Below are positions 4,047 through 63,556 of a stretch of DNA of 64,000 nt, piece after piece. Origin of the DNA: a phage; the sequence record OZ336093.1, one strand, 5' to 3'. Below the pieces are notes generated by a model. That model did no database searches. It was given only the letters and a program-made list of their open reading frames with translations, and was not told where the DNA came from. The translations under genes and the position numbers were made by a program. Positions within the stretch are counted from its first letter, which is position 1. Every line of letters starts with the position of its first letter.

Positions 4047-4159
4047 CAATCGAATTTTAATGTAGCTCCGATTAACTACCCATACCCTACTTTGCCTTGC
4101 CGTACTGTACTTTACCCGACCATACCGGACAATACTTAACCCGACCTCGCCCTACCGGA

Positions 4160-4199
4160 CATCACTTAAAAACCCTCTTAGAAAGACTCTTAAGTGATG
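4160..4199. repeat. inverted repeat CATCACTTAA...TTAAGTGATG (copy 3)
   Basis: near-identical to 2595-2633 including loop CCTCTTAGAA(A)GACTC. Confidence 0.7.
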
Positions 4200-6957: not shown

Positions 6958-9657
6958 TTAGTGAACCTCAAGCCAGCTTTTACCAACCTTACCAGTACCT
7001 ATAACAAGTGTTTCTTTCTTAAGACCTAAGTTTTTAGAAGCTTGTCCATAATACCAGTCAGTAACTGCTTTCACTTCTGCCGTCATACTTTCTGGACATT
7101 CCCAACTTGTTTCATCGTGATATGCGCAGAGCAAACGAGCACCAATAGCTGGTTGACGACCATTCAACTTCATCAAACCTTCGTCAATCATACGACGACA
7201 AGCAAGGTTAATTGCCTCATTTTGAATCTGAGCCTCTGAACCCATCAAAAGATAGTTCAACAGTTTGTGTGGAGATTTACACCACAACCAAGCTCCAGCA
7301 ACCTTTACAAAACCCCCTTTAGAGATTGCAGCAGTCTTACCAAACACCTCTTCAAGTGCCTTCTTAGTTGCTTTGTAGTCAGCTTCCAAGTTATCTAGCA
7401 ACTTCTTAATTTTAGGCAAACGCACAAAGTAAGTCTGTTTAGTTAATGCACCTTCCTGAGTAGTGGCTGCCTTAATAGTTTTAGCAAACTTTTCATCACC
7501 TGCACCGAACAGTAGTGCATAGATACCATTCTTAGCTTTCTTACGACCTTTGCTAATCTCATGAAGAAGATTCTCATCCTGAGTAGCTCGACAAGTCAAG
7601 ATATCCTGCTCATCATTCAAGCTAAAGTAAATACTGTTCAGTGTATGTGCATCAGTCCCTGAATAGACAACGTACAGGTCATTCTCAGAGTCATAGCGAA
7701 GGTACTTATCAATCTCTGGGTTTAGGTACTCATCAAAATGTTTGCAGTAATAGCGTCCATCTTCTTGACGAATAAACTCAATCTCTTCTTTACCTTGCGT
7801 TACCGCTTTGGTGAAGTCTTTGTCACCCATAAAGTTACAAAGGAGAACTAGCTGAGCTGAGTTCATGTCTACAGAGACAACATTAGTACCTTCTTCACAA
7901 ATCCACACTGCCCTCATTGGTTCCCCATAGACGGCAGCACCAGACGGTACGTTTACAATACCATATTGTGTCATACGTCCAGTTGAAGTACCAAATACCA
8001 TTGCACCAGCACTAAGGCGACCATCAGGACGAATCTGGTTCAACCAACCTTTTTCATCATCCTTTGAGTTCTCAATAGTTCTGCGTCTGTGCATCAAAGT
8101 GTAGTACTTAGCAATCTTCTGTCCAAGCTCACCTTCAATCGTATCATAAGATGATTCAGTAAGTTTTGGTGAAGTACGGATTAAGCAAGGCTCAAGCAAA
8201 TCTGTGTATTTCTTCACAGACCAGTTATGCTCAATGTACTGTACACCTTCATGCTCAACATAGCTCAAACCACACCGCTCAATCATTTCCTGCCACTTAG
8301 GATGTTTTGTAATCATCTTTTTATTGTCTTTGAAACGACAAACTTTGACAGGGCGACCATCTGAGTCTTTCTTGTAGTTCCAGTCATCTGGAATCCAACC
8401 AACTGATTTCAAGTAGTCTTTAACAACTGCTACCTGAGTCATACGAGAAACTTCAAACTCAATTGGTGTATATGGTGCATCAATCAAACCTGTGTAGCGA
8501 CTTGACTCAAGTTCAAAGTGGTTAACAACGTGACTGTTATAGTACTTCACAGTTTTGACTGTTTTTACTGGCTTCCAGTCTTTGCATTTCTTGCCAATCT
8601 TTGCATTCAACTCATTGCAAATTGCACGAGCATCCTTCATTGCTACAAAACCTTCCTTGTACTCTTCACCAGTTACAGAGTTGGTTGGTGTATAGCAATT
8701 TCTCTTTTCAATGTTGAAAATCTTTGTAGTTGGCTTACCAAATGGCTTGATTTCATATGTCTGCATCTCACCGTTACGTACCTGCTGACGATACTTTGTC
8801 TTAGGGTACTTGGTAATTCTCTTCAGTCCATCTGCATGACCGAATGTTTCAACATACTCATTCCAAGCTTTTGCAAACTCTTCTCCAGTGACTTTACCTT
8901 TGGTCTTAATAGTTGGAGGTAGATGTGGTTCAACCTCTGAAGCAAGTTCATTAGTCAATTTGTCAAGCTCCTTTACATGGAACTCCATAAGCTCCTTATC
9001 AGCTTTCCAACCATTGATAGCTTGTTGGCTCATCCAGAAAGATGTCTCTTTAGCTCGCATGTAAGTTTCATAAGTGTCTATACCACACTTCTTAAGCTTG
9101 AGATACTCGTTATCAAGTGCCCGTTTAGTTTTGGCGTTAATACGGATATCTTCTACAACACGAGTGAAGATTTCTGCATTCCATACACCCCAATGCTCAA
9201 TCTCTGGTTTACGAACACCAACACGAGCACCCCATGCAGCCAAACCATGAGCACCTTTATAACCCTTTGGAGTTGGTCTATCCATCCACTGAACACGAGA
9301 CTGAATAAGAGAATCCTGAAAGAAATTACTCCACGGCTTACATTTTGGATTATCAAAGTTCCATAAATCCGGTGCAATGTGATTGAAGACCCACCAGTCA
9401 TAACCGAGGCCGTTATGGATACAAAGTCGTTTTGCCTTTAACGCAAACTCAACACCTTCACGTAAACCACCCTTAATGTACTTAGTGTACTTGTGACCGA
9501 GGATAGGCTCATCTGTAAAGACCCATACAGGTGGCTCTTCATCGTCAGATTTATAGTCTGCAAAGGCCATTACGTGAACTTTAGTGAACTCAAGGAGTAA
9601 ACCATCAGTTTCTGTATCACCAACCAAATGTAAGTTTTTAAAATCTACGTTTTCCAT
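6958..9657 (-). CDS. DNA polymerase, family A (PolI-like) with 3'-5' exonuclease domain
   Basis: Exo I motif VGDTETDG near N-terminus; motif A-like VDMNSAQLVLL, motif B-like LLFGAGDEKFAK, motif C YHDE; start at Met with AGAGGGAG RBS. Confidence 0.85.
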   Translation of the reverse strand: MENVDFKNLHLVGDTETDGLLLEFTKVHVMAFADYKSDDEEPPVWVFTDEPILGHKYTKYIKGGLREGVEFALKAKRLCIHNGLGYDWWVFNHIAPDLWNFDNPKCKPWSNFFQDSLIQSRVQWMDRPTPKGYKGAHGLAAWGARVGVRKPEIEHWGVWNAEIFTRVVEDIRINAKTKRALDNEYLKLKKCGIDTYETYMRAKETSFWMSQQAINGWKADKELMEFHVKELDKLTNELASEVEPHLPPTIKTKGKVTGEEFAKAWNEYVETFGHADGLKRITKYPKTKYRQQVRNGEMQTYEIKPFGKPTTKIFNIEKRNCYTPTNSVTGEEYKEGFVAMKDARAICNELNAKIGKKCKDWKPVKTVKTVKYYNSHVVNHFELESSRYTGLIDAPYTPIEFEVSRMTQVAVVKDYLKSVGWIPDDWNYKKDSDGRPVKVCRFKDNKKMITKHPKWQEMIERCGLSYVEHEGVQYIEHNWSVKKYTDLLEPCLIRTSPKLTESSYDTIEGELGQKIAKYYTLMHRRRTIENSKDDEKGWLNQIRPDGRLSAGAMVFGTSTGRMTQYGIVNVPSGAAVYGEPMRAVWICEEGTNVVSVDMNSAQLVLLCNFMGDKDFTKAVTQGKEEIEFIRQEDGRYYCKHFDEYLNPEIDKYLRYDSENDLYVVYSGTDAHTLNSIYFSLNDEQDILTCRATQDENLLHEISKGRKKAKNGIYALLFGAGDEKFAKTIKAATTQEGALTKQTYFVRLPKIKKLLDNLEADYKATKKALEEVFGKTAAISKGGFVKVAGAWLWCKSPHKLLNYLLMGSEAQIQNEAINLACRRMIDEGLMKLNGRQPAIGARLLCAYHDETSWECPESMTAEVKAVTDWYYGQASKNLGLKKETLVIGTGKVGKSWLEVH

Positions 9658-56828: not shown

Positions 56829-58244
56829 ATGAGCGAATTATTTAAACATGCGCACCTTCATGCAGGTCGAACTGAAAATGGTGCTGTAAACCATACTTCA
56901 TCAATGTCTGCTCTTGTAGACTTTTACAAAGCTGCTGGTTCAAGCCGTAGCAACGTAGAAATCTTACCAGACCTGTTCTACAAAGCTTTGCGTGAGGATG
57001 TTGATGTTGCAGTTCGTATTTTGCTTCATATGCGAGATGTACGAGAAGGCATGGGTGAGCGTAAAGCCTTCAGAACTGTTTTACTTCAAGCGATTGAAGA
57101 TAAGGTTTTAGAACCTACACAGGTTCTTCGCATTATGGATAAGATTGCAGAGCTTGGTCGTTTTGATGACTTCAAAATCTTCGTAGGTACTCGTTTCGAG
57201 ACAGATGCCTTCAAACATTTAGAAGCAGCATTACTAGACCCTGCAACAGCAGGTTTGGCAGCCAAGTGGCTACCACGAGTCAAACCACGTCATAAGCAGT
57301 TTGTAAAACGTTTCTGCAAGTTTGCCAACTTGAGTGAGAAAGAGTACCGCACACTGTTGTCTGCACTATCTGATACAGTTGAGCAAAAAATCTCTGCTAA
57401 TGAGTTTGGTAAGATTGACTACAGTAAGATTCCTTCACTTGCTGCTGCACGTTACCAAAACCTGTTTAACCGTAAAGATGGAGAGCGTTACAAAGCTTAC
57501 ATCGAGTCCTTATCAAAAGGTGAGACTAAGATTAACGCTGGTGCTGTTTACCCATACGATGTGATTAAATCTATTAAGTATGGTAATGCAGATGTTGCTA
57601 ATGAGCAGTGGAAAGCACTACCAAACTGGATGGCAGAAGGTGAAAACATCTTGTGCATGACTGATGTCTCAAGCTCAATGTCTTGGGTGAATCTTGGTTC
57701 AATCACTGCTCTTGATATTGGTGTATCACTTGCATTGTATGTTGCAGAACGTAATACAGGTTGCTTTAAGAATGAGTTGATGGTTTATTCAACAAACCCT
57801 CACTTCATCGAACTGAGTGGTGATTTACGAAACCGTCATCGTCAGGTGATGCGACACGTTGAATATGGCTCAACTAACTTACAAGCAGCTTTTGACCGTA
57901 TTCTTGAGACAGGTAAAAGAAACAACTTGACTCAGAAAGATATGCCAAGTAAGCTTATCATTTTCTCCGATATGGAGTTTAATCAGGTTGATGGTGCTAA
58001 TGGCCGTACAAACTTCGAAGCAATTCGAGATAAGTACGAAAAAGCTGGATATGAGATGCCACAACTGGTATTCTGGTACTTAGCAAACCGTAATGGTACT
58101 TGCGAAGTGTCTGTTAAGGATAACGGTGTAGCAATGGTATCAGGCTTCTCTCCAGCTACTTTAAAAGCTCTGCTTGGTGGTGAGAAGTTTGACCCAATCA
58201 GCGTAATGCTCAAAGCAGTAATGATTGACCGTTATATCTGGTAA
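56829..58244 (+). CDS. vWA-domain protein, possibly Ro60/Rsr-like (TROVE-vWA) RNA-binding protein
   Basis: MIDAS-like motif CMTDVSSSMS with downstream T and SDME residues at vWA-typical spacing; about 260 aa helical N-terminal region; sits directly upstream of tRNA/structured-RNA array. Confidence 0.55.
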   Translation: MSELFKHAHLHAGRTENGAVNHTSSMSALVDFYKAAGSSRSNVEILPDLFYKALREDVDVAVRILLHMRDVREGMGERKAFRTVLLQAIEDKVLEPTQVLRIMDKIAELGRFDDFKIFVGTRFETDAFKHLEAALLDPATAGLAAKWLPRVKPRHKQFVKRFCKFANLSEKEYRTLLSALSDTVEQKISANEFGKIDYSKIPSLAAARYQNLFNRKDGERYKAYIESLSKGETKINAGAVYPYDVIKSIKYGNADVANEQWKALPNWMAEGENILCMTDVSSSMSWVNLGSITALDIGVSLALYVAERNTGCFKNELMVYSTNPHFIELSGDLRNRHRQVMRHVEYGSTNLQAAFDRILETGKRNNLTQKDMPSKLIIFSDMEFNQVDGANGRTNFEAIRDKYEKAGYEMPQLVFWYLANRNGTCEVSVKDNGVAMVSGFSPATLKALLGGEKFDPISVMLKAVMIDRYIW

Positions 58245-58410
58245 AAAAGTTTTAAAAAGGGTATTGACAATGTGTTTAATACCCTTTAATATGTTCTACA
58301 TAGAAACGAAATGAGAGCTTTTCTAAGATACTGAAAAATATTTTAAAAAAGTTCTTGACAATCACTAAAAAATAATGTTAAAGTGGTTACATAGAGTTTG
58401 AAAAGTTTAT

Positions 58411-58487
58411 CTCTGTTTAGCTCAGCTTGGTAGAGCGTTCCGTTTGGGGCGGTAAGGCCGGAGGTTCAAGTCCTCCAACAGAGACCA
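58411..58487 (+). tRNA. tRNA-Pro (anticodon TGG)
   Basis: hand-folded cloverleaf, 7 bp acceptor, T-arm GGAGG-TTCAAGT-CCTCC, CCA encoded. Confidence 0.7.
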
Positions 58488-58494
58488 AATTAAT

Positions 58495-58572
58495 GTTCCA
58501 GTAGACAAAATGGTAAAGTCACCACTCTTTCAAAGTGGATATCTGAGGGTTCAAATCCCTTCTGGAACGCCA
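58495..58572 (+). tRNA. tRNA-Glu (anticodon TTC)
   Basis: acceptor GTTCCAG/CTGGAAC, anticodon loop CTTTCAA, CCA encoded. Confidence 0.7.
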
Positions 58573-58579
58573 GTTTTGA

Positions 58580-58655
58580 CAGAAGACCAATTACAGCAAA
58601 CTTAATCTTATTCATCTGAAGGTAAATCGGACAAAGAAGAGATTTGGTCTGGTCA
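58580..58655 (+). ncRNA. structured RNA element, copy 1 (5' AGAAGACCAA / 3' TTGGTCTGG closing stem)
   Basis: conserved 5' block CAGAAGACCnnTTACAGCAA and 3' block GGTCTGG; stem covaries between copies. Confidence 0.5.
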
Positions 58656-58663
58656 TTAAGAAT

Positions 58664-58740
58664 TGCGGGTATAGAGAAAGGGCGTCTCACATGTCTCATT
58701 AGCATGGTATCGGCAGGTTCGACTCCTGCACCCGCCTCCA
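58664..58740 (+). tRNA. tRNA with anticodon CAT (Met or Ile2), irregular fold
   Basis: T-arm GCAGG-TTCGACT-CCTGC and CCA present; acceptor/D-arm register ambiguous. Confidence 0.5.
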
Positions 58741-58746
58741 AATTTG

Positions 58747-58808
58747 CAGAAGACCGTATTCAGCAACAAAATACTTTTTGCGGATAAAAGAAAAAACACG
58801 GTCTGGCA
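58747..58808 (+). ncRNA. structured RNA element, copy 2 (5' AGACCGT / 3' ACGGTCT stem)
   Basis: same conserved blocks as copy 1 with compensatory stem changes. Confidence 0.5.
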
Positions 58809-58817
58809 ATGTATTAA

Positions 58818-58894
58818 GGTTAGGAAGCACATAAGGTATGTGCGGTCGCCTGTTAAGCGAATGGCACAGGGTTCGAATCCCTGACTAACCGCCA
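58818..58894 (+). tRNA. tRNA-Asn (anticodon GTT)
   Basis: acceptor GGTTAGG/ACTAACC, loop CTGTTAA, CCA encoded. Confidence 0.7.
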
Positions 58895-58903
58895 AATTTA
58901 AAT

Positions 58904-58991
58904 GTGTCGTTATCCCGTAGATGGTAGCGGTGGGGACTGTAAATCCCTTGTCATTGAGACTCGGTAGGTTCGACTCCTACACGGCACACCA
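58904..58991 (+). tRNA. tRNA-Tyr (anticodon GTA), long variable arm
   Basis: loop CTGTAAA, long variable arm, T-arm GTAGG-TTCGACT-CCTAC, CCA encoded. Confidence 0.7.
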
Positions 58992-58996
58992 ATAAA

Positions 58997-59074
58997 GGTT
59001 ATGTAGTTTAATTTGGTTAAAATGCTCCCCTGTCACGGGAGATGATGAGGGTTCAAATCCCTTCGTAACCGCCA
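58997..59074 (+). tRNA. tRNA-Asp (anticodon GTC)
   Basis: stem CTCCC/GGGAG around loop CTGTCAC, CCA encoded. Confidence 0.7.
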
Positions 59075-59135
59075 ATTTTGAGAGGGCTATTTAGCCCCTC
59101 CCTTAAAGGGTTCTTACGAGTATCCTTTAAAGGGG

Positions 59136-59211
59136 CAGAAGACCAAATACAGCAAGAATGTATGAAATTTCAAGCCAATTTAATTTTGAAAATTTAAAAC
59201 TTGGTCTGGCT
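59136..59211 (+). ncRNA. structured RNA element, copy 3 (5' AGACCAA / 3' TTGGTCT stem)
   Basis: conserved CAGAAGACCAAATACAGCAA and TTGGTCTGG. Confidence 0.5.
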
Positions 59212-59222
59212 CAACAAATTTA

Positions 59223-59356
59223 CAGAAGACCGTTTACAGCAAAACTTAAACAATCTATTTCTCCGGTAAAGAAAAGGCGAAGGTTCGATTCCTTCACTCG
59301 GCAGATGTCGAGTTGGTGTAATGGTAGCACTTAAGATGATAAACAACGGTCTGGTA
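59223..59356 (+). ncRNA. structured RNA element, copy 4, with internal tRNA-like module
   Basis: closing stem AGACCGTT/AACGGTCT; interior carries T-arm-like GAAGG-TTCGATT-CCTTC and D-arm-like GTTGGTGTAATGGTAGCAC but no complete tRNA. Confidence 0.5.
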
Positions 59357-59503
59357 ATTATCTTTGTAGATAAGTTATTAAGCTTACCTGTGAGTATGCG
59401 ACCACAAAGGGTGAAAGGGTAAATTCTAGATTTAAACCCAACAAGGCACATCGCTACAGACCTTAAGCAAGTCTGGGTAGCTTATCTACAAAGATAATTT
59501 AAT

Positions 59504-59579
59504 GGAAGTGTAGCAGAATGGTGATGCGGCAGACTTTTAATCTGACAGGCGATGGGTTCGAATCCCTCCACTTCTACCA
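59504..59579 (+). tRNA. tRNA-Lys (anticodon TTT)
   Basis: loop CTTTTAA, T-stem with one bulged T, CCA encoded. Confidence 0.6.
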
Positions 59580-59583
59580 ATAT

Positions 59584-59660
59584 GGTTCAGTCGCAGATAA
59601 GGTAATGCAAGGGTCTCATAAGCCCTATGAATGTGGGTTCGATTCCCATCTGAACCTCCA
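59584..59660 (+). tRNA. tRNA-Met (anticodon CAT)
   Basis: loop CTCATAA flanked by GGG/CCC stem, acceptor GGTTCAG/CTGAACC, CCA encoded. Confidence 0.7.
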
Positions 59661-59661
59661 A

Positions 59662-59738
59662 GCTGGTATAGTTAAGAAGGTTATAACACTCCCCTGATAA
59701 GGGAACATCGGTGGTTCGATTCCACCTACCAGTACCAA
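59662..59738 (+). tRNA. tRNA-Ile (anticodon GAT)
   Basis: loop CTGATAA, T-arm GGTGG-TTCGATT-CCACC, CCA encoded. Confidence 0.65.
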
Positions 59739-59753
59739 TTTCAATAAAGTTGT

Positions 59754-59782
59754 TGACATTGAGATGTGACTACTTTATAGTA
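59754..59782 (+). promoter_or_regulatory. sigma70-like promoter TTGACA-N17-TATAGT inside the tRNA array
   Basis: consensus -35 with 17 bp spacer and TATAGT -10; followed by about 200 nt with no tRNA. Confidence 0.6.
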
Positions 59783-59983
59783 ACCTTAGTTTTCGTTGCG
59801 TAGCGTCTATTTTGCAAATTTAAAATAAATGCAAACGACAATGTTTTTCTGGCAGTAGCTTGATAGGCTAAACACCAGCGAGGTCTTCCAATCCCTCATC
59901 AAAGAATTTGGCGTACTAGCCCACGGTATGATTAATAAGGTGGGCATCTTTAAGGGCTTTCTAAGAGAGTCTTTAAAGATTAA

Positions 59984-60060
59984 TGCACCCTTAGTTCAAT
60001 TGGATAGAGCAACGGTCTTCTAAATCGTTAGTTACAGGTTCGAATCCTGTAGGGTGTGCC
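59984..60060 (+). tRNA. tRNA-Arg (anticodon TCT)
   Basis: loop CTTCTAA, T-arm ACAGG-TTCGAAT-CCTGT, CCA encoded. Confidence 0.7.
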
Positions 60061-60203
60061 AATTAGTTAGCAGATTACTTAGACGACCTAAGCGGGTCTT
60101 CCTGTAGGGAGGTGGTCTGTATCTCATGTTTTCCAGAACATGTAAATAATCTGAGAAGGGGCTTTACAGTGTTGAGATAATACGGTAAGCTTCGAATTAT
60201 AGT

Positions 60204-60286
60204 ATGGGACGATGTTAAGACTCTAAGGCATGAGCAACGGCCTCCAAAACCGTTTCAAAGGGGTTCAAATCCTCCGTCCCATGCCA
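60204..60286 (+). tRNA. tRNA-Trp-like (anticodon CCA), irregular
   Basis: anticodon arm resembles E. coli tRNA-Trp (CTCCAAA loop); about 7 extra nt between acceptor and D-stem. Confidence 0.45.
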
Positions 60287-60299
60287 AAGTCTTATTAGG

Positions 60300-60387
60300 G
60301 GTAGGTAGCGGCTAATGGCAGCCAAACAGTCTTGAAAACTGTTGCCACTGTAGAGATACGGTGAGGGTTCGACTCCTTTACTTACCG
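60300..60387 (+). tRNA. tRNA-Ser (anticodon TGA), long variable arm
   Basis: loop CTTGAAA, long variable arm; CCA not encoded. Confidence 0.65.
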
Positions 60388-60544
60388 CCTAATAAGATTT
60401 AAAGCCAAGCTTCATTCGGATGTTGCTTTGGTATACCGCGTGTATTGTTGTACGCACTGATAAAGCACCTAGTAGGTGTCACGGAGAAGAGATAATATCA
60501 AGCTCTCCAAAGGTTCTAGTCACCGGATTAAACAAGACTATGCA

Positions 60545-60568
60545 AAGACCTTTTTAGGTCTTTTTAGA
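60545..60568 (+). terminator. hairpin terminator within tRNA array
   Basis: AAGACCT-TTTT-AGGTCTT followed by TTTT. Confidence 0.5.
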
Positions 60569-60645
60569 GGGCTTCTAAGGTTATTACAGCTTGTTGTGGA
60601 ACCTTGTTGCTTAGGTTCTTAGAAGTTCTCTAAAAAGATTTAATG

Positions 60646-60723
60646 GGAGATTGACGGTAATTGGTAAACCTACCATCCTTAGAAGTTGGTGTTTGAGGGT
60701 TCGAATCCCTTGTCTCCTACCAA
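60646..60723 (+). tRNA. tRNA with anticodon TAG (nominally Leu) on a short-variable-arm scaffold
   Basis: loop CTTAGAA, acceptor GGGAGAT/GTCTCCT, CCA encoded; weak D-stem. Confidence 0.5.
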
Positions 60724-60730
60724 ATTAATG

Positions 60731-60806
60731 CAGGTGTAGCAAAATGGTTATGCGGCTGACTCTTAATCAGTAAGACGATGGGTTCAATTCCCTCCACCTG
60801 TACCAG
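60731..60806 (+). tRNA. tRNA-Lys (anticodon CTT)
   Basis: loop CTCTTAA; paralogous to the TTT copy incl. bulged T-stem; CCA encoded. Confidence 0.6.
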
Positions 60807-60812
60807 ACATTG

Positions 60813-60888
60813 GGGATGTAGTTTACATGGTTAAAACATAAGTTTTGCAAACTTAAGTACAGGGTTCAATTCCCTGCTTCTCCACCAA
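60813..60888 (+). tRNA. tRNA-Ala (anticodon TGC)
   Basis: D-stem GTTT/AAAC, loop TTTGCAA, T-arm CAGGG-TTCAATT-CCCTG, CCA encoded. Confidence 0.7.
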
Positions 60889-60894
60889 TTAGTG

Positions 60895-60969
60895 CATCCA
60901 TAGTTTAAACGGGAAAATTACAGTCTTCCAAACTGAGGTTGAGGGTTCGATTCCCTCTGGATGCTCCAA
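60895..60969 (+). tRNA. tRNA-Gly (anticodon TCC)
   Basis: loop CTTCCAA, acceptor GCATCCA/TGGATGC, CCA encoded. Confidence 0.65.
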
Positions 60970-60976
60970 ATTAATG

Positions 60977-61053
60977 CTGCTTTCGTATAATTGGCTATTA
61001 CACATCCCTTGTAAGGATGGAAATGCGGGTTCGAGTCCTGTGAGCAGCACCAA
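60977..61053 (+). tRNA. tRNA-Thr (anticodon TGT)
   Basis: stem CATCC/GGATG around loop CTTGTAA, CCA encoded. Confidence 0.7.
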
Positions 61054-61055
61054 TT

Positions 61056-61147
61056 CAGAGGTCAAGTGAAAGACCGCTGGTGTCAACTGAAGACCGTAAC
61101 AAATTCCACGGAGTTGAGTTAGCGGCACAACTTCAGACCTCTTTCAC
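61056..61147 (+). ncRNA. possible small structured RNA between tRNA-Thr and tRNA-Val
   Basis: about 90 nt with internal complementarity (AGTGAAAGA recurs; GAGGTC pairs with GACCTC) and no tRNA fold. Confidence 0.3.
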
Positions 61148-61222
61148 ACTCGCTTAGTTTATATGGTAAAACATCACCCTTACAAGATGAAGAAAAAGGT
61201 TCAAGTCCTTTAGTGAGTACCA
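61148..61222 (+). tRNA. tRNA-Val (anticodon TAC)
   Basis: loop CTTACAA, T-arm AAAGG-TTCAAGT-CCTTT, CCA encoded. Confidence 0.65.
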
Positions 61223-61223
61223 T

Positions 61224-61301
61224 GTTCCAGTATCCCAATTGGCAGAGGATGCAAGCTCAAACCTTGTATTAGTGACGGTTCGAATCCGTCTTGGAACACC
61301 A
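61224..61301 (+). tRNA. tRNA with anticodon CAA (nominally Leu) on a short-variable-arm scaffold
   Basis: stem GCAAG/CTTGT around loop CTCAAAC, T-arm GACGG-TTCGAAT-CCGTC, CCA encoded. Confidence 0.55.
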
Positions 61302-61306
61302 ATTTT

Positions 61307-61382
61307 GCAGGATTAGTTCAAATGGATAGAGCAACAGTCTACGAAGCTGTTAATAGGGGTTCGAATCCCTTATCCTGCGCCA
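61307..61382 (+). tRNA. tRNA-Arg (anticodon ACG)
   Basis: loop CTACGAA, D-arm GTTC..GAGC, CCA encoded. Confidence 0.7.
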
Positions 61383-61399
61383 GATAAAAAGGTGATACT

Positions 61400-61642
61400 A
61401 TGCAAACATTAACAGTAGTTGAACATGAAAACTGTGAGAATATTGAGTTTGTCAGGGTCATTGGTGTTGAACACCACATTTTCTTAAAAGTAGGGTACTT
61501 ATGTGACCCCGCTAGAGTAGAAAGATTTATACGTGATTGTTTTGGTGGTAGACAGCTAAAGAGTGTTATTTTTGAGACAGTTTTACCAGAAGGTTTAGAA
61601 ACGAATAATAACATTTATCTCCTTACAAGGATTAGACGATGA
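61400..61642 (+). CDS. hypothetical protein embedded in tRNA array
   Basis: 80 aa ORF starting 18 nt after tRNA-Arg. Confidence 0.35.
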   Translation: MQTLTVVEHENCENIEFVRVIGVEHHIFLKVGYLCDPARVERFIRDCFGGRQLKSVIFETVLPEGLETNNNIYLLTRIRR

Positions 61643-62196
61643 GATATTTAAAATATGCTTCATGGATTTTCCTAGCTTTGCTAGAACCATTAGCAGCAAC
61701 CTTAGCAGTTATCTTAGCACCTTTCGTAGTTCCATTTTACAGTGAGAAGAAAGGCCACTTACCTTTCGGATTTAGATGGATGGAGACATATGACAACCCA
61801 ATTGATGGTGACGAAGGTCATATCGAACGATGGGCTAAGATTAGAAAGATTGGTAAGCTGGGTGTCTACATGCAGAGAGTCGGATGGCTCTGGAGAAACA
61901 AAGCTTATAACTTCTCTTACCATGTATTAGGAAGAGATGTAAAAGATGTTACTAAGTGGAAAGGTAATATCAACGTAAGTTCTGACCCTGAAGATAATCA
62001 GACAGGTTATCTCCTAATGTGGAACAGTAATGCTTGGGGATTATTCGCTTTTATCCCATCAATTAAAGTCTTTGGTAAACAGTTTTACTGGAGAATTTAT
62101 ATTGGATGGAAACTAAAAAGTGTTGTCCCAGAAGAAAGAGCATTCTCAAGGGAAAGAGTTATGTTGGCATTCTTTATTCATCCACTGAGAAAGTAA
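61639..62196 (+). CDS. hypothetical membrane protein embedded in tRNA array
   Basis: 185 aa, N-terminal TM segment, Trp-rich. Confidence 0.45.
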   Translation: MRYLKYASWIFLALLEPLAATLAVILAPFVVPFYSEKKGHLPFGFRWMETYDNPIDGDEGHIERWAKIRKIGKLGVYMQRVGWLWRNKAYNFSYHVLGRDVKDVTKWKGNINVSSDPEDNQTGYLLMWNSNAWGLFAFIPSIKVFGKQFYWRIYIGWKLKSVVPEERAFSRERVMLAFFIHPLRK

Positions 62197-62204
62197 AGAT
62201 TTAA

Positions 62205-62280
62205 AGGGGATTAGTTTACAAGGTTAAAACCTCGGTCTTTGAAATCGAAGAAGTTGGTTCAATTCCAACATCCCCCGCCA
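62205..62280 (+). tRNA. tRNA-Gln (anticodon TTG)
   Basis: loop CTTTGAA, weak 1-72 pair as typical for tRNA-Gln, CCA encoded. Confidence 0.65.
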
Positions 62281-62282
62281 AT

Positions 62283-62361
62283 ACTCCATTACTCCAATTG
62301 GCAGAGAGGCCAGACTTAAAATCTGTGTTATGTATCGGTTCGAATCCGATATGGAGTACCA
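62283..62361 (+). tRNA. tRNA with anticodon TAA (nominally Leu) on a short-variable-arm scaffold
   Basis: loop CTTAAAA, T-arm ATCGG-TTCGAAT-CCGAT, about 7 nt variable loop, CCA encoded. Confidence 0.55.
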
Positions 62362-62366
62362 AATTT

Positions 62367-62442
62367 AGCGGTATAGCATAACTGGCAATGCAACAGTCTC
62401 TGAAGCTGTCCTATTAAGGTTCAAATCTTTATGCCGCTGCCA
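62367..62442 (+). tRNA. tRNA-Gln (anticodon CTG)
   Basis: loop CTCTGAA, D-stem GCAT/ATGC, CCA encoded. Confidence 0.6.
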
Positions 62443-62471
62443 CTTCTAAGGGTTCTTACGAGAGTCCTTAA

Positions 62472-62547
62472 ATGTGGCCTTATCATAAATGGTAATGACC
62501 CATGCTGTGAACATGGTCTATACGGGTTCAAATCCCGTAGGTCACCC
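62472..62547 (+). tRNA. tRNA-His (anticodon GTG)
   Basis: loop CTGTGAA, discriminator C, CCA encoded. Confidence 0.65.
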
Positions 62548-62553
62548 CAATTT

Positions 62554-62629
62554 ATAGTCCAAGTAGCTTATATGGTTAAAGCGCGTGTCTGAAAAACATG
62601 AGAAGAGGGTTCAAATCCCACTGGACTAC
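62554..62629 (+). tRNA. tRNA-Phe-like (anticodon GAA), irregular
   Basis: loop CTGAAAA, D-stem GCTT/AAGC; acceptor and T-stem register off by one. Confidence 0.5.
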
Positions 62630-62647
62630 CAATTTCAAAGGTGCTTA

Positions 62648-63382
62648 ATGAAAGAGATGACAGAACAAGGTAAGGAGATTTTTAATCTCTTAAAAACCGG
62701 TAAAGGGTTTTCTAACCCACTTATTACTGGTGCAGCAGTTCTCGGTGGAACCGTAGCTGCTTCTACATCACTTGTAAGCTCTATTAGTTCTGTAACAGAC
62801 CCTACAATGCAGGAGAAACTTGTTGCTGCTGGACTTACAACAGTCCTTCTAAACAGCTTTACAACAAGCCTTACAAGCACTACAGCAACTACTAAGACCC
62901 TGACAGACTACGGTCAAAAATCTATTGATGAGTTTTCATCACGTATGCAGGTAGCAAAGGGATATTCCAATGTTATGGGTGCAGCAGGAGAACAAGTTGG
63001 TTGTACACCGTTCAGTGGTATTATGGGTGTTGCTACAGAATATGGTCAAAAAGCTATTGATACGATTAACAGTACACTAGAGAGTGTTAACAATGTATTA
63101 AGTGACTTACAAGACGCTATTGACAAGGGTCTTGATACTGTTTCTGATTTAGCTAACCAAGCTGTCAGTAAGATTAATGAAGGTATCTCAAAGATTACAG
63201 CTTATGCAGATGAAGTTGTGCAGATGATTGAAGAAGAAGCTGCCCTTATTGCAGAGTACCTTAAAACGAATATCAATGGGTTCTTAGCAGGTATCTTACC
63301 AGACTGGTTTGATGATGCCTGTAAAACTGGTGTAATTGACACTATTGCAACACCAGAAATGAAGAACGCATTACAGAAATAA
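62648..63382 (+). CDS. hypothetical Ser/Thr-rich protein embedded in tRNA array
   Basis: start moved to first ATG downstream of tRNA-Phe (track start 62585 overlaps the tRNA). Confidence 0.45.
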   Translation: MKEMTEQGKEIFNLLKTGKGFSNPLITGAAVLGGTVAASTSLVSSISSVTDPTMQEKLVAAGLTTVLLNSFTTSLTSTTATTKTLTDYGQKSIDEFSSRMQVAKGYSNVMGAAGEQVGCTPFSGIMGVATEYGQKAIDTINSTLESVNNVLSDLQDAIDKGLDTVSDLANQAVSKINEGISKITAYADEVVQMIEEEAALIAEYLKTNINGFLAGILPDWFDDACKTGVIDTIATPEMKNALQK

Positions 63383-63383
63383 T

Positions 63384-63476
63384 GGAAGATTAACCCTAAA
63401 AGGTAAGGGAGCAGTTTGCTAAACTGCCAGTAGCTGAGAAATCGGTGTACCAGTTCAAGTCTGGTATCTTCCTCCA
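63384..63476 (+). tRNA. tRNA-Ser (anticodon GCT), long variable arm
   Basis: stem GCAGT/ACTGC around loop TTGCTAA, long variable arm, CCA encoded. Confidence 0.7.
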
Positions 63477-63480
63477 ATTT

Positions 63481-63556
63481 GAATCCGTGACAGAAATGGC
63501 TATGTGCCTGTCTGCAAAACAGGTTTATAAGGGTTCGAGTCCCTTCGGATTCTCCA
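63481..63556 (+). tRNA. tRNA-Cys (anticodon GCA)
   Basis: stem CCTGT/ACAGG around loop CTGCAAA, CCA encoded. Confidence 0.7.

Follow-up and report, generated by a model that had tools for sequence, protein, structure and literature searches.

Leucine tRNAs without a long variable arm in the tRNA array of a Felix O1-like phage

To our knowledge, textbooks and recent reviews describe the leucine transfer RNA (tRNA-Leu) as long-armed everywhere but in animal mitochondria. The window considered here, which is the whole 64,000-nucleotide (nt) stretch of phage record OZ336093.1, contains a large array of tRNA genes with exactly three leucine anticodons as called by ARAGORN (tag, caa and taa), and all three of these genes encode a short, type I molecule. 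The locus therefore raises the question of what such molecules are, namely leucine tRNAs that dispense with the arm, tRNAs for some other amino acid, RNAs that serve outside translation or genes in decay. We consider it likely that they are functional type I tRNA-Leu, charged by the host's leucyl-tRNA synthetase (LeuRS) and used in translation, a reading that builds on the observed gene calls, short variable region, retained determinants, covariation, conservation and distribution.

The 5.4-kilobase (kb) array is 95–98% identical to Felixounavirus genomes and has matches in 308 phage records, and on this sequence identity it is assigned to Felixounavirus, the Felix O1-like myoviruses of Salmonella and Escherichia coli. 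The preliminary description of the window, made by hand-folding, had proposed that the three Leu-anticodon tRNAs (TAG, CAA and TAA) lack a long variable arm, and this is borne out by the ARAGORN structures, in which the variable region is 4 nt long in the UAG tRNA, 5 nt in the CAA tRNA and 7 nt in the UAA tRNA. The other class I tRNAs of the array cover the same range, with 3–8 nt. Class II tRNAs are marked by a stem-loop in a variable region longer than 10 nt. The three Leu tRNAs have none, while those for Tyr and Ser in this array do (15–21 nt, with stems), and the latter serve as internal controls (Table 1). Without the encoded CCA the Leu tRNAs are 75–76 nt each. All three score over the full Rfam model RF00005 (positions 1–71) and exceed its gathering score of 29 bits.

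Table 1. Location in the window of the three tRNA-Leu genes, the array in which they lie, the class II controls and a candidate promoter
Feature	Coordinates	Strand	Details
tRNA-Leu(UAG), type I	60645..60722	+	78 nt including encoded CCA; ARAGORN; Rfam 40.0 bits
tRNA-Leu(CAA), type I	61224..61301	+	78 nt including encoded CCA; ARAGORN; Rfam 44.0 bits
tRNA-Leu(UAA), type I	62283..62361	+	79 nt including encoded CCA; ARAGORN; Rfam 48.3 bits
tRNA array holding the three Leu genes	58411..63556	+	26 ARAGORN tRNAs, all on the + strand; three small open reading frames interspersed; ARAGORN and Rfam
tRNA-Tyr(GUA), class II, internal control	58904..58991	+	88 nt; 15-nt variable region with stem
tRNA-Ser(UGA), class II, internal control	60300..60389	+	90 nt; 19-nt variable arm
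tRNA-Ser(GCU), class II, internal control	63384..63476	+	93 nt; 21-nt variable arm
Candidate array promoter	58355..58384	+	Sigma-70-like consensus match: TTGACA, 18-nt spacer, TAAAGT, upstream TG; 27 nt before first tRNA

The pairing of Leu anticodons with a short form could in principle have arisen from a misread anticodon loop, a doubt that had been voiced together with the first observation. The register turns out to have been read correctly, and only the start of the first gene moves by 1 nt, from 60646 to 60645, which gives an acceptor end of G1.U72, A73 and CCA; in one relative C72 restores a Watson-Crick pair. ARAGORN, Rfam and the tRNAscan-SE annotations of related records agree on the anticodons and on the Leu isotype, and neither ARAGORN nor Rfam calls a long-armed (class II) tRNA-Leu anywhere in the 64-kb window. 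An overlooked class II tRNA-Leu and a wrong register were both rejected on the agreement of the two programs and the lack of any long Leu tRNA in the window. Related phage records annotate the same genes as tRNA-Leu, in the case of the Mooglevirus Silverhawkium explicitly by tRNAscan-SE and with the tRNA gene order of the window.

Type I tRNA-Leu is defined by a variable loop of about 5 nt in a molecule with the anticodon and identity of leucine, and each of the three genes has this combination. The cloverleaf is that of an ordinary tRNA, with an acceptor stem of 7 base pairs (bp), an anticodon stem of 5 bp that closes a 7-nt loop with U33, a T stem of 5 bp with the loop UUCRANU, and covariation. 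The CAA tRNA has a 3-bp D stem (UCC/GGA), the D loop CAAUUGGCAGA, a variable region of 5–6 nt (AUUAGU), U48 and A73. The UAA tRNA has the same D loop on a 3-bp stem of CUC/GAG, a 7-nt variable region (GUUAUGU) and again U48 and A73; its A1-U72 pair is G1.U72 in most relatives. The UAG tRNA, with a variable region of 4–5 nt (UGUUU), is the least regular of the three, since its D loop has one extra nucleotide before A14, its D stem is mismatched and U30 faces U40 in the anticodon stem. The U30.U40 site lies at 60673–60687 of the window and within 7997–8073 of locus L001 and 4112–4188 of L390 (from Salmonella phage SSE121), and the stem is perfect in other Felixounavirus copies. Folded singly, the UAG and UAA tRNAs have minimum free energy structures other than cloverleaves, with weak z-scores of the kind that AT-rich tRNAs usually give, and covariation was relied on instead.

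The window was compared with 25 further Felixounavirus and Mooglevirus loci from IMG/VR, one T5-like phage and one Erwinia Kolesnikvirus. All three Leu genes are kept in every relative of this set at a length of 77–79 nt, and they are conserved across Felixounavirus, Mooglevirus and Kolesnikvirus. The anticodon stem of the UAG tRNA changes from CCAUC/GUUGG in the window to UCUCG/CGAGA or CCUCG/CGAGG in relatives, which are compensatory substitutions, and in an RNAalifold alignment of 11 sequences from the UAG family double changes are found in 13 of the 17 pairs around a variable region of five columns. A73 is present in the three window genes and in nearly all copies from relatives, with G73 in the CAA copy of one relative, and every copy in the window and in relatives has U at the last variable position.

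The same shape was also sought in IMG/VR. The pattern joined the Leu D loop to an NAR anticodon loop and to the distance from the T loop that is typical of class I, and it found at least 120 loci. Among 86 distinct viral type I tRNA-Leu of 77 nt, 98% of stem cells pair, as against 41–47% with a shifted partner, and there are about four pair types per position. U8, U48 and A73 occur in 86 of 86, and none of the three is fixed by the search pattern; since the type I set is biased by that pattern, the other invariant positions are partly an effect of ascertainment. These results bear on whether the short forms might be decaying pseudogenes or software artefacts in a phage that depends on the tRNA-Leu of its host. 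Such decay would agree with the Rfam scores of the three genes, which are among the lowest of the array, and with the U.U mismatch and weak D stem of the UAG tRNA in the window. Yet the genes are called by two independent programs and kept in every relative examined, the changes within them are compensatory rather than disruptive, and the same architecture, with its 98% stem pairing, is found in hundreds of viral contigs, so that decay or artefact has to be judged highly improbable.

That the molecules are leucine tRNAs is apparent from alignment with leuX, leuW and leuZ of E. coli K-12, which carry the same anticodons and are ordinary type II tRNAs of 85, 85 and 87 nt. The three phage genes match them end to end except for one gap of 8–10 nt in the variable arm, and where the CAA gene is set against leuX this is the single gap. 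A14, G18, G19, A20a and A73 are invariant in the alignment. The phage tRNAs retain U8, A14, A15, G18G19, A20a, U48 as the last variable nucleotide, the T loop UUCGAAU, A73 and an encoded CCA, and the bases for the U8-A14 pair and the A15-U48 Levitt pair, which are predicted to form, are present in all three genes. The D arm of the CAA and UAA tRNAs, a 3-bp stem followed by N13-AAUUGGCAGA (AAUUGG-Y-A-R-A), agrees in length and register with E. coli AAUYGGUAGA, and it has the placement of G18G19 and A20a that is typical of leucine; the UAG tRNA shares this arrangement only in part. Identity for E. coli LeuRS lies in A73, A14, A15-U48, G18G19, A20a and the D/T-loop tertiary pairs (PMC9976931). 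The enzyme is indifferent to the anticodon and to the sequence and fold of the long arm, and a minimal tRNA-Leu without the arm is still active (PMC9976931).

The preliminary description had also suggested that tRNAs so unusual might be charged with another amino acid, in which case infection would bring a partial recoding of UUR and CUN codons. That they are unusual has stood, in that they are type I tRNA-Leu, whereas the second part finds a Leu-type D arm, A73, A15 and U48 in its way and none of the marks for alanine or serine. A class I shape is indeed atypical of bacterial tRNA-Leu, and A73 is common to several other isotypes. Moreover, in the Mooglevirus Sf14, for which a 2025 paper reports an array of the same gene order without ever mentioning the variable arm, the tRNAscan-SE isotype scores place leucine first (Leu_TAG 67.4, Leu_CAA 49.1 and Leu_TAA 60.2), with Ile2 at 65.7 and Lys at 63.4 close behind for the TAG gene (PMC12482277). 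Against this, the D arm is leucine-specific and aligns with that of E. coli tRNA-Leu; positions 3 and 70 hold G-C, U-A and U-A in the three tRNAs, so that the G3.U70 pair for alanyl-tRNA synthetase is missing, as are the long arm and G73 for seryl-tRNA synthetase. The remaining synthetases that use A73 read anticodon bases that are not found here (PMC9976931), and the three anticodons fit no anticodon-reading synthetase outside the Leu set. Leu codons make up about 8% of codons in the open reading frames (ORFs) of the window (1,042 of 13,196) and are read by the host tRNA-Leu as well, and mischarged competitors would therefore scramble every phage protein. Charging with a different amino acid is accordingly very hard to credit.

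The favoured interpretation, that of functional type I tRNA-Leu, can be outlined as follows. The phage molecules would descend from ordinary tRNA-Leu that lost a variable-arm hairpin of about 10 nt, with the rest of the leucine-specific architecture kept, from the 3-bp D stem and the D loop AAUUGGYARA, by which G18G19 are held in place, through A14, A15, A20a and U48, to UUCGAAU, A73 and CCA. They would be transcribed and processed along with the rest of the array and then loaded with leucine by the host LeuRS. In decoding, the UAA tRNA would read UUA and UUG, the CAA tRNA would read UUG and the UAG tRNA would read CUA and CUG, possibly all CUN codons. In E. coli CUG alone accounts for about half of the Leu codons. 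The 48 long ORFs of the window use UUA at 23%, UUG at 15%, CUU at 30%, CUC at 6%, CUA at 10% and CUG at 16%, and the phage, with a guanine-cytosine (GC) content of 39%, favours the codons read by the three tRNAs far above CUG. Set against the usage of E. coli, it follows that the three anticodons would serve codons that the phage needs.

The main evidence against simple charging by the host LeuRS comes from published results. In vitro, the type I tRNA-Leu(CAA) of Streptomyces coelicolor was left uncharged by the E. coli enzyme, which is described as charging type II tRNA-Leu only (Fan et al. 2019, NAR 47:6369, PMC6614811). According to further work from the same laboratory, Arg811 in the C-terminal domain of E. 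coli LeuRS touches the 47h phosphate of the long arm, and the equivalent contact in M. tuberculosis LeuRS matters for catalysis; the leucine-specific domain of the E. coli enzyme prefers a larger variable-arm loop. Also to be counted against the favoured interpretation are the weak D arm of the UAG tRNA, the U.U mismatch of its anticodon stem and its Rfam score, the lowest of the three. The 2019 result conflicts with the older identity work on the dispensability of the arm. One difference between the substrates may explain this, in that position 48 is C in the Streptomyces tRNA and U in the phage tRNAs, all of which keep the A15-U48 required by E. coli LeuRS, a comparison of ours that may account for the failure of the E. 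coli enzyme on the Streptomyces tRNA.

If the enzyme does reject them, the molecules could be real, expressed tRNAs that are charged poorly or not at all by the host LeuRS and whose main role lies outside decoding. They might serve to distract or soak up tRNA-directed nucleases or toxins of the host, as decoys or sponges, or their use could require a phage factor. The inactivity of E. coli LeuRS on a natural type I tRNA-Leu in vitro (PMC6614811) points in this direction, as does the contact that bacterial LeuRS makes with the long arm, and phage tRNAs are known to neutralise the tRNA-cleaving defences PtuAB of Retron-Eco7, Septu and PARIS. However, the published determinants for E. coli LeuRS are kept, including A15/U48, which the Streptomyces substrate does not have, although the D arm of the UAG tRNA is kept only partly. 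The three tRNAs are conserved in their anticodon loops and as a set of anticodons, in agreement with the Leu codon usage of the phage, and a decoy would have no need for anticodons, A73 and CCA to be kept in three isoacceptors of several phage families. No synthetase-like phage protein lies within or adjoining the array. Decoys, or tRNAs in need of a phage factor, are for these reasons an unlikely alternative to molecules that host LeuRS would charge.

Known systems help to place the phage molecules. The tRNA-Leu(CAA) of S. coelicolor (PMC6614811) is likewise a bacterial-type tRNA-Leu with a 5-nt variable loop, and it shares its cytoplasm and a single LeuRS with type II tRNA-Leu. It differs in being chromosomal, in being one of five isoacceptors and in being charged by a LeuRS with an adapted leucine-specific domain. 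The phage has type I molecules for all three of its Leu tRNAs, and the LeuRS is that of an E. coli or Salmonella host, of which the E. coli enzyme is reported not to charge the Streptomyces type I tRNA. Fan et al. (2019) call the type I case rare, attribute charging to the leucine-specific domain of the Streptomyces LeuRS and do not mention phages; charging of type I tRNA-Leu has been demonstrated only for this enzyme (ScoLeuRS) and for the human mitochondrial one (PMC6614811).

The tRNA-Leu(UUR) and tRNA-Leu(CUN) of animal mitochondria resemble the phage tRNAs in being type I with A73 and A14 as identity elements (PMC9976931). They are nevertheless structurally relaxed and have a dedicated mitochondrial LeuRS in a separate compartment, whereas in the phage tRNAs the D and T loops are canonical and the elbow pairs are retained. 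Engineered E. coli tRNA-Leu without the arm (Larkin et al. 2002; Asahara et al. 1993 and 1998; summary in PMC9976931) are laboratory constructs that, according to that summary, keep A73 and the D/T-loop tertiary pairs and are still charged by E. coli LeuRS. The tRNA-Leu(UAA) of T4, also an E. coli phage, reads UUA and UUG and has a Leu-type D loop (AAUUGGUAAAG); unlike the tRNAs of the window it is 87 nt long and of type II with a normal long arm, and it is the only tRNA-Leu of T4.

Homologous type I tRNA-Leu are present in T5-like phages (Tequintavirus), in Vequintavirinae and in other Ounavirinae phages. Their UAG copies in the first two groups are 77 nt long, about 84% identical to that of the window over 77–78 nt and have the same 5-nt variable loop, and those of T5-like phages and of SSE121 share the U30.U40 mismatch. 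These carriers of the gene belong to other phage families, and the T5-like and Vequintavirinae phages among them infect the same hosts. The T5-like phage chee24 has two tRNA-Leu, both of 77 nt. In the Salmonella phage SSE121 (locus L390) one genome holds both a type II tRNA-Leu(UAA) and a type I tRNA-Leu(UAG), at 973–1058 and 4112–4188, and Av-05 (locus L391) has a tRNA-Leu at 7354–7430; the tRNAs of these two Vequintavirinae phages are unannotated in their GenBank records. The T5-coded tRNAs are said to have been charged with E. coli enzymes, reportedly by Scherberg and Weiss in 1970 and by Hunt et al. in 1980.

Among the IMG/VR matches listed, ARAGORN finds at least 163 tRNA-Leu of 80 nt or less (at least 151 of them distinct) and at least 55 longer ones. 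The tRNA-Ser (81–96 nt, one 72-nt call excepted) and tRNA-Tyr (79–94 nt) stay long among the same matches. Arms in the Ser and Tyr tRNAs would presumably be kept since their synthetases need them, and that only the Leu arm has been lost fits LeuRS being the sole synthetase of the three able to do without. In a sample of viral loci that does not depend on leucine, found by a tRNA-Met pattern, 10 of 41 tRNA-Leu, about one in four, are 79 nt or less.

The same Leu pattern was applied to GTDB species genomes. Among the matches listed there are mostly solitary chromosomal tRNA-Leu of 73–79 nt in Actinomycetota, in genera that include Nocardia, Rhodococcus, Gordonia, Mycobacterium, Corynebacterium, Bifidobacterium and Rothia, and others come from large tRNA arrays of cyanobacteria, Polyangia and other metagenome-assembled genomes. 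The actinobacterial copies closely resemble those of the phages in the D arm and in an NCAGU variable loop; relatives of the S. coelicolor tRNA carry the D arm GCC CAAUUGGCAGA GGC together with NCAGU, as do the Mooglevirus and Kolesnikvirus copies. The Actinomycetota type I tRNA-Leu (loci L269–L388, for example L274, L276, L290 and L334) have UAA, CAA and UAG anticodons. Judged by these sequences, type I tRNA-Leu in Actinomycetota extends well beyond the one CAA case, that of S. coelicolor, which the literature describes. The premise of the preliminary description that bacterial tRNA-Leu is class II consequently holds for the enterobacterial host, whose leuX, leuW and leuZ are 85–87 nt long, and fails as a universal statement, given the type I molecules of Streptomyces, other Actinomycetota and many phages. 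A search of 5,426 complete E. coli genomes with the 78-nt CAA tRNA, a query of low sensitivity, gave no close copy at E<=1e-3, and at that low sensitivity the sequences give no sign of a host or prophage origin.

What is already known are the genes, which are annotated in public records, and the kind of molecule, which is familiar from Streptomyces and mitochondria. The armless tRNA-Leu is widespread in phages and, within the searchable literature, undescribed there; the sole remark that was found concerns a short-armed tRNA-Leu(TAG) in a mycobacterial tRNA cluster.

Why the arm should have been lost is a separate matter. The host tRNA-Tyr variable loop is the cut site of a defence nuclease in PtuAB of Retron-Eco7 and in Septu, and long arms being cut in this way by antiphage nucleases suggests that phages might strip the arm from the class II tRNA whose synthetase tolerates its loss. 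Arm loss would then be an adaptive counter-defence rather than neutral streamlining, providing a nuclease-proof Leu set with which translation could go on when the type II tRNA-Leu of the host is destroyed, and by analogy an armless tRNA-Leu would be immune to any nuclease that resembles the variable-arm cutters. The phage tRNA-Tyr that resist Retron-Eco7 PtuAB or Septu are also of the class II family and have a variable loop unlike that of the host; they differ in retaining a long loop, which is even longer in one case, and the link with defence has been demonstrated for Tyr only. We know of no nuclease that cuts the variable arm of tRNA-Leu. The idea is speculative and, on balance, doubtful; were it true, E. 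coli LeuRS would charge natural type I tRNA-Leu, contrary to what the literature currently states.

Other elements of the array are irregular in other ways. The preliminary description held that the array covers all 20 amino acids and that three further tRNAs fold irregularly, at 58664, 60204 and 62554. Two of these, the Met tRNA at 58664 and the Phe tRNA, which starts at 62556 and scores 45 bits, are called by ARAGORN, and the one at 60204 is not. Full coverage hinges on this last element being tRNA-Trp; it goes uncalled by ARAGORN, Rfam gives it only 22 bits, and those to tRNA-Sec, and yet compensatory changes in relatives support a tRNA-like RNA with a CCA anticodon. The element (60204–60286, + strand) has the anticodon loop CUCCAAA (CCA, Trp), A1-U72, G73 and an encoded CCA, and some 8 additional nucleotides separate its acceptor stem from a D-like stem of 3 bp. 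In Mooglevirus relatives the D-like stem changes from CUC/GAG to CAC/GUG and the anticodon stem from AACGG/CCGUU to GUAAG/CUUAC, with compensatory changes in the T stem as well, and in two relatives (L005 and L018) a different tRNA-Trp of 71 nt occupies the slot. Its sequence suggests that it is probably a non-canonical tRNA-Trp missed by standard software, which would account for reports that only 19 amino acids are covered in these phages. The tRNA-Met(CAU) at 58664–58740 (+ strand), an ARAGORN call below the Rfam threshold, has a U1.C72 mismatch atop the acceptor stem, U73, and U37 in the anticodon loop CUCAUUA, and may act as an initiator, an elongator or a tRNA-Ile2.

The stretch at 58576–59360 (+ strand) has four spacer units, each about as long as a tRNA, set between tRNA genes. 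They open with ACAGAAGACCnnnTnCAGCAA (at 58576, 58743, 59132 and 59219) and close with GGTCTGG (at 58646, 58800, 59203 and 59348), and the fourth contains a T arm and 3' acceptor strand at 59246–59296 (Rfam tRNA, 22 bits) followed by a stretch that resembles a 5' half. The units could be small RNAs, decayed tRNAs or a permuted tRNA. Inverted repeats precede two of the tRNA genes on the + strand: one at 59356–59499, upstream of tRNA-Lys(UUU), has 22-nt arms that are 95% complementary and enclose 100 nt, and one at 60554–60643, upstream of tRNA-Leu(UAG), has 26-nt arms that are 85% complementary and enclose 38 nt. Scans of the region for promoters and terminators, which include the candidate in Table 1, gave no more matches than expected from shuffled sequence.

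Directly upstream of the array an ORF of 471 amino acids (56829–58241, + strand) matches Pfam DUF2828 and DUF7788 and PHROG 850 'RNA-binding protein', and the homologue in Silverhawkium carries the annotation vWA-like. The protein may be an RNA chaperone of the Ro60/TROVE type that sits beside the tRNAs and tRNA-like RNAs. The ORFs within and adjoining the array matched only domains of unknown function and this PHROG 'RNA-binding protein' (DUF2828 with DUF7788), with nothing synthetase-like among the matches, and a phage-encoded charging helper was rejected on that account.

The one bacterial exception studied so far, that of Streptomyces, has been presented as rare and as dependent on a specially adapted LeuRS (PMC6614811). 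Here, a well-known group of E. coli and Salmonella phages has its entire set of leucine tRNAs without the arm, in hosts with an enzyme reported to reject type I tRNA-Leu, and the form is widespread in phages. For annotation this matters in that isotype models expect a long arm, and there may be an application in the design of orthogonal tRNA-Leu for expansion of the genetic code. With cultured phages such as Felix O1 and T5 two questions come within reach: whether enterobacterial LeuRS charges these tRNAs and which element, perhaps A15-U48, sets them apart from the Streptomyces tRNA, and whether the loss of the arm would protect the tRNAs of a phage from nucleases directed at the variable arm.

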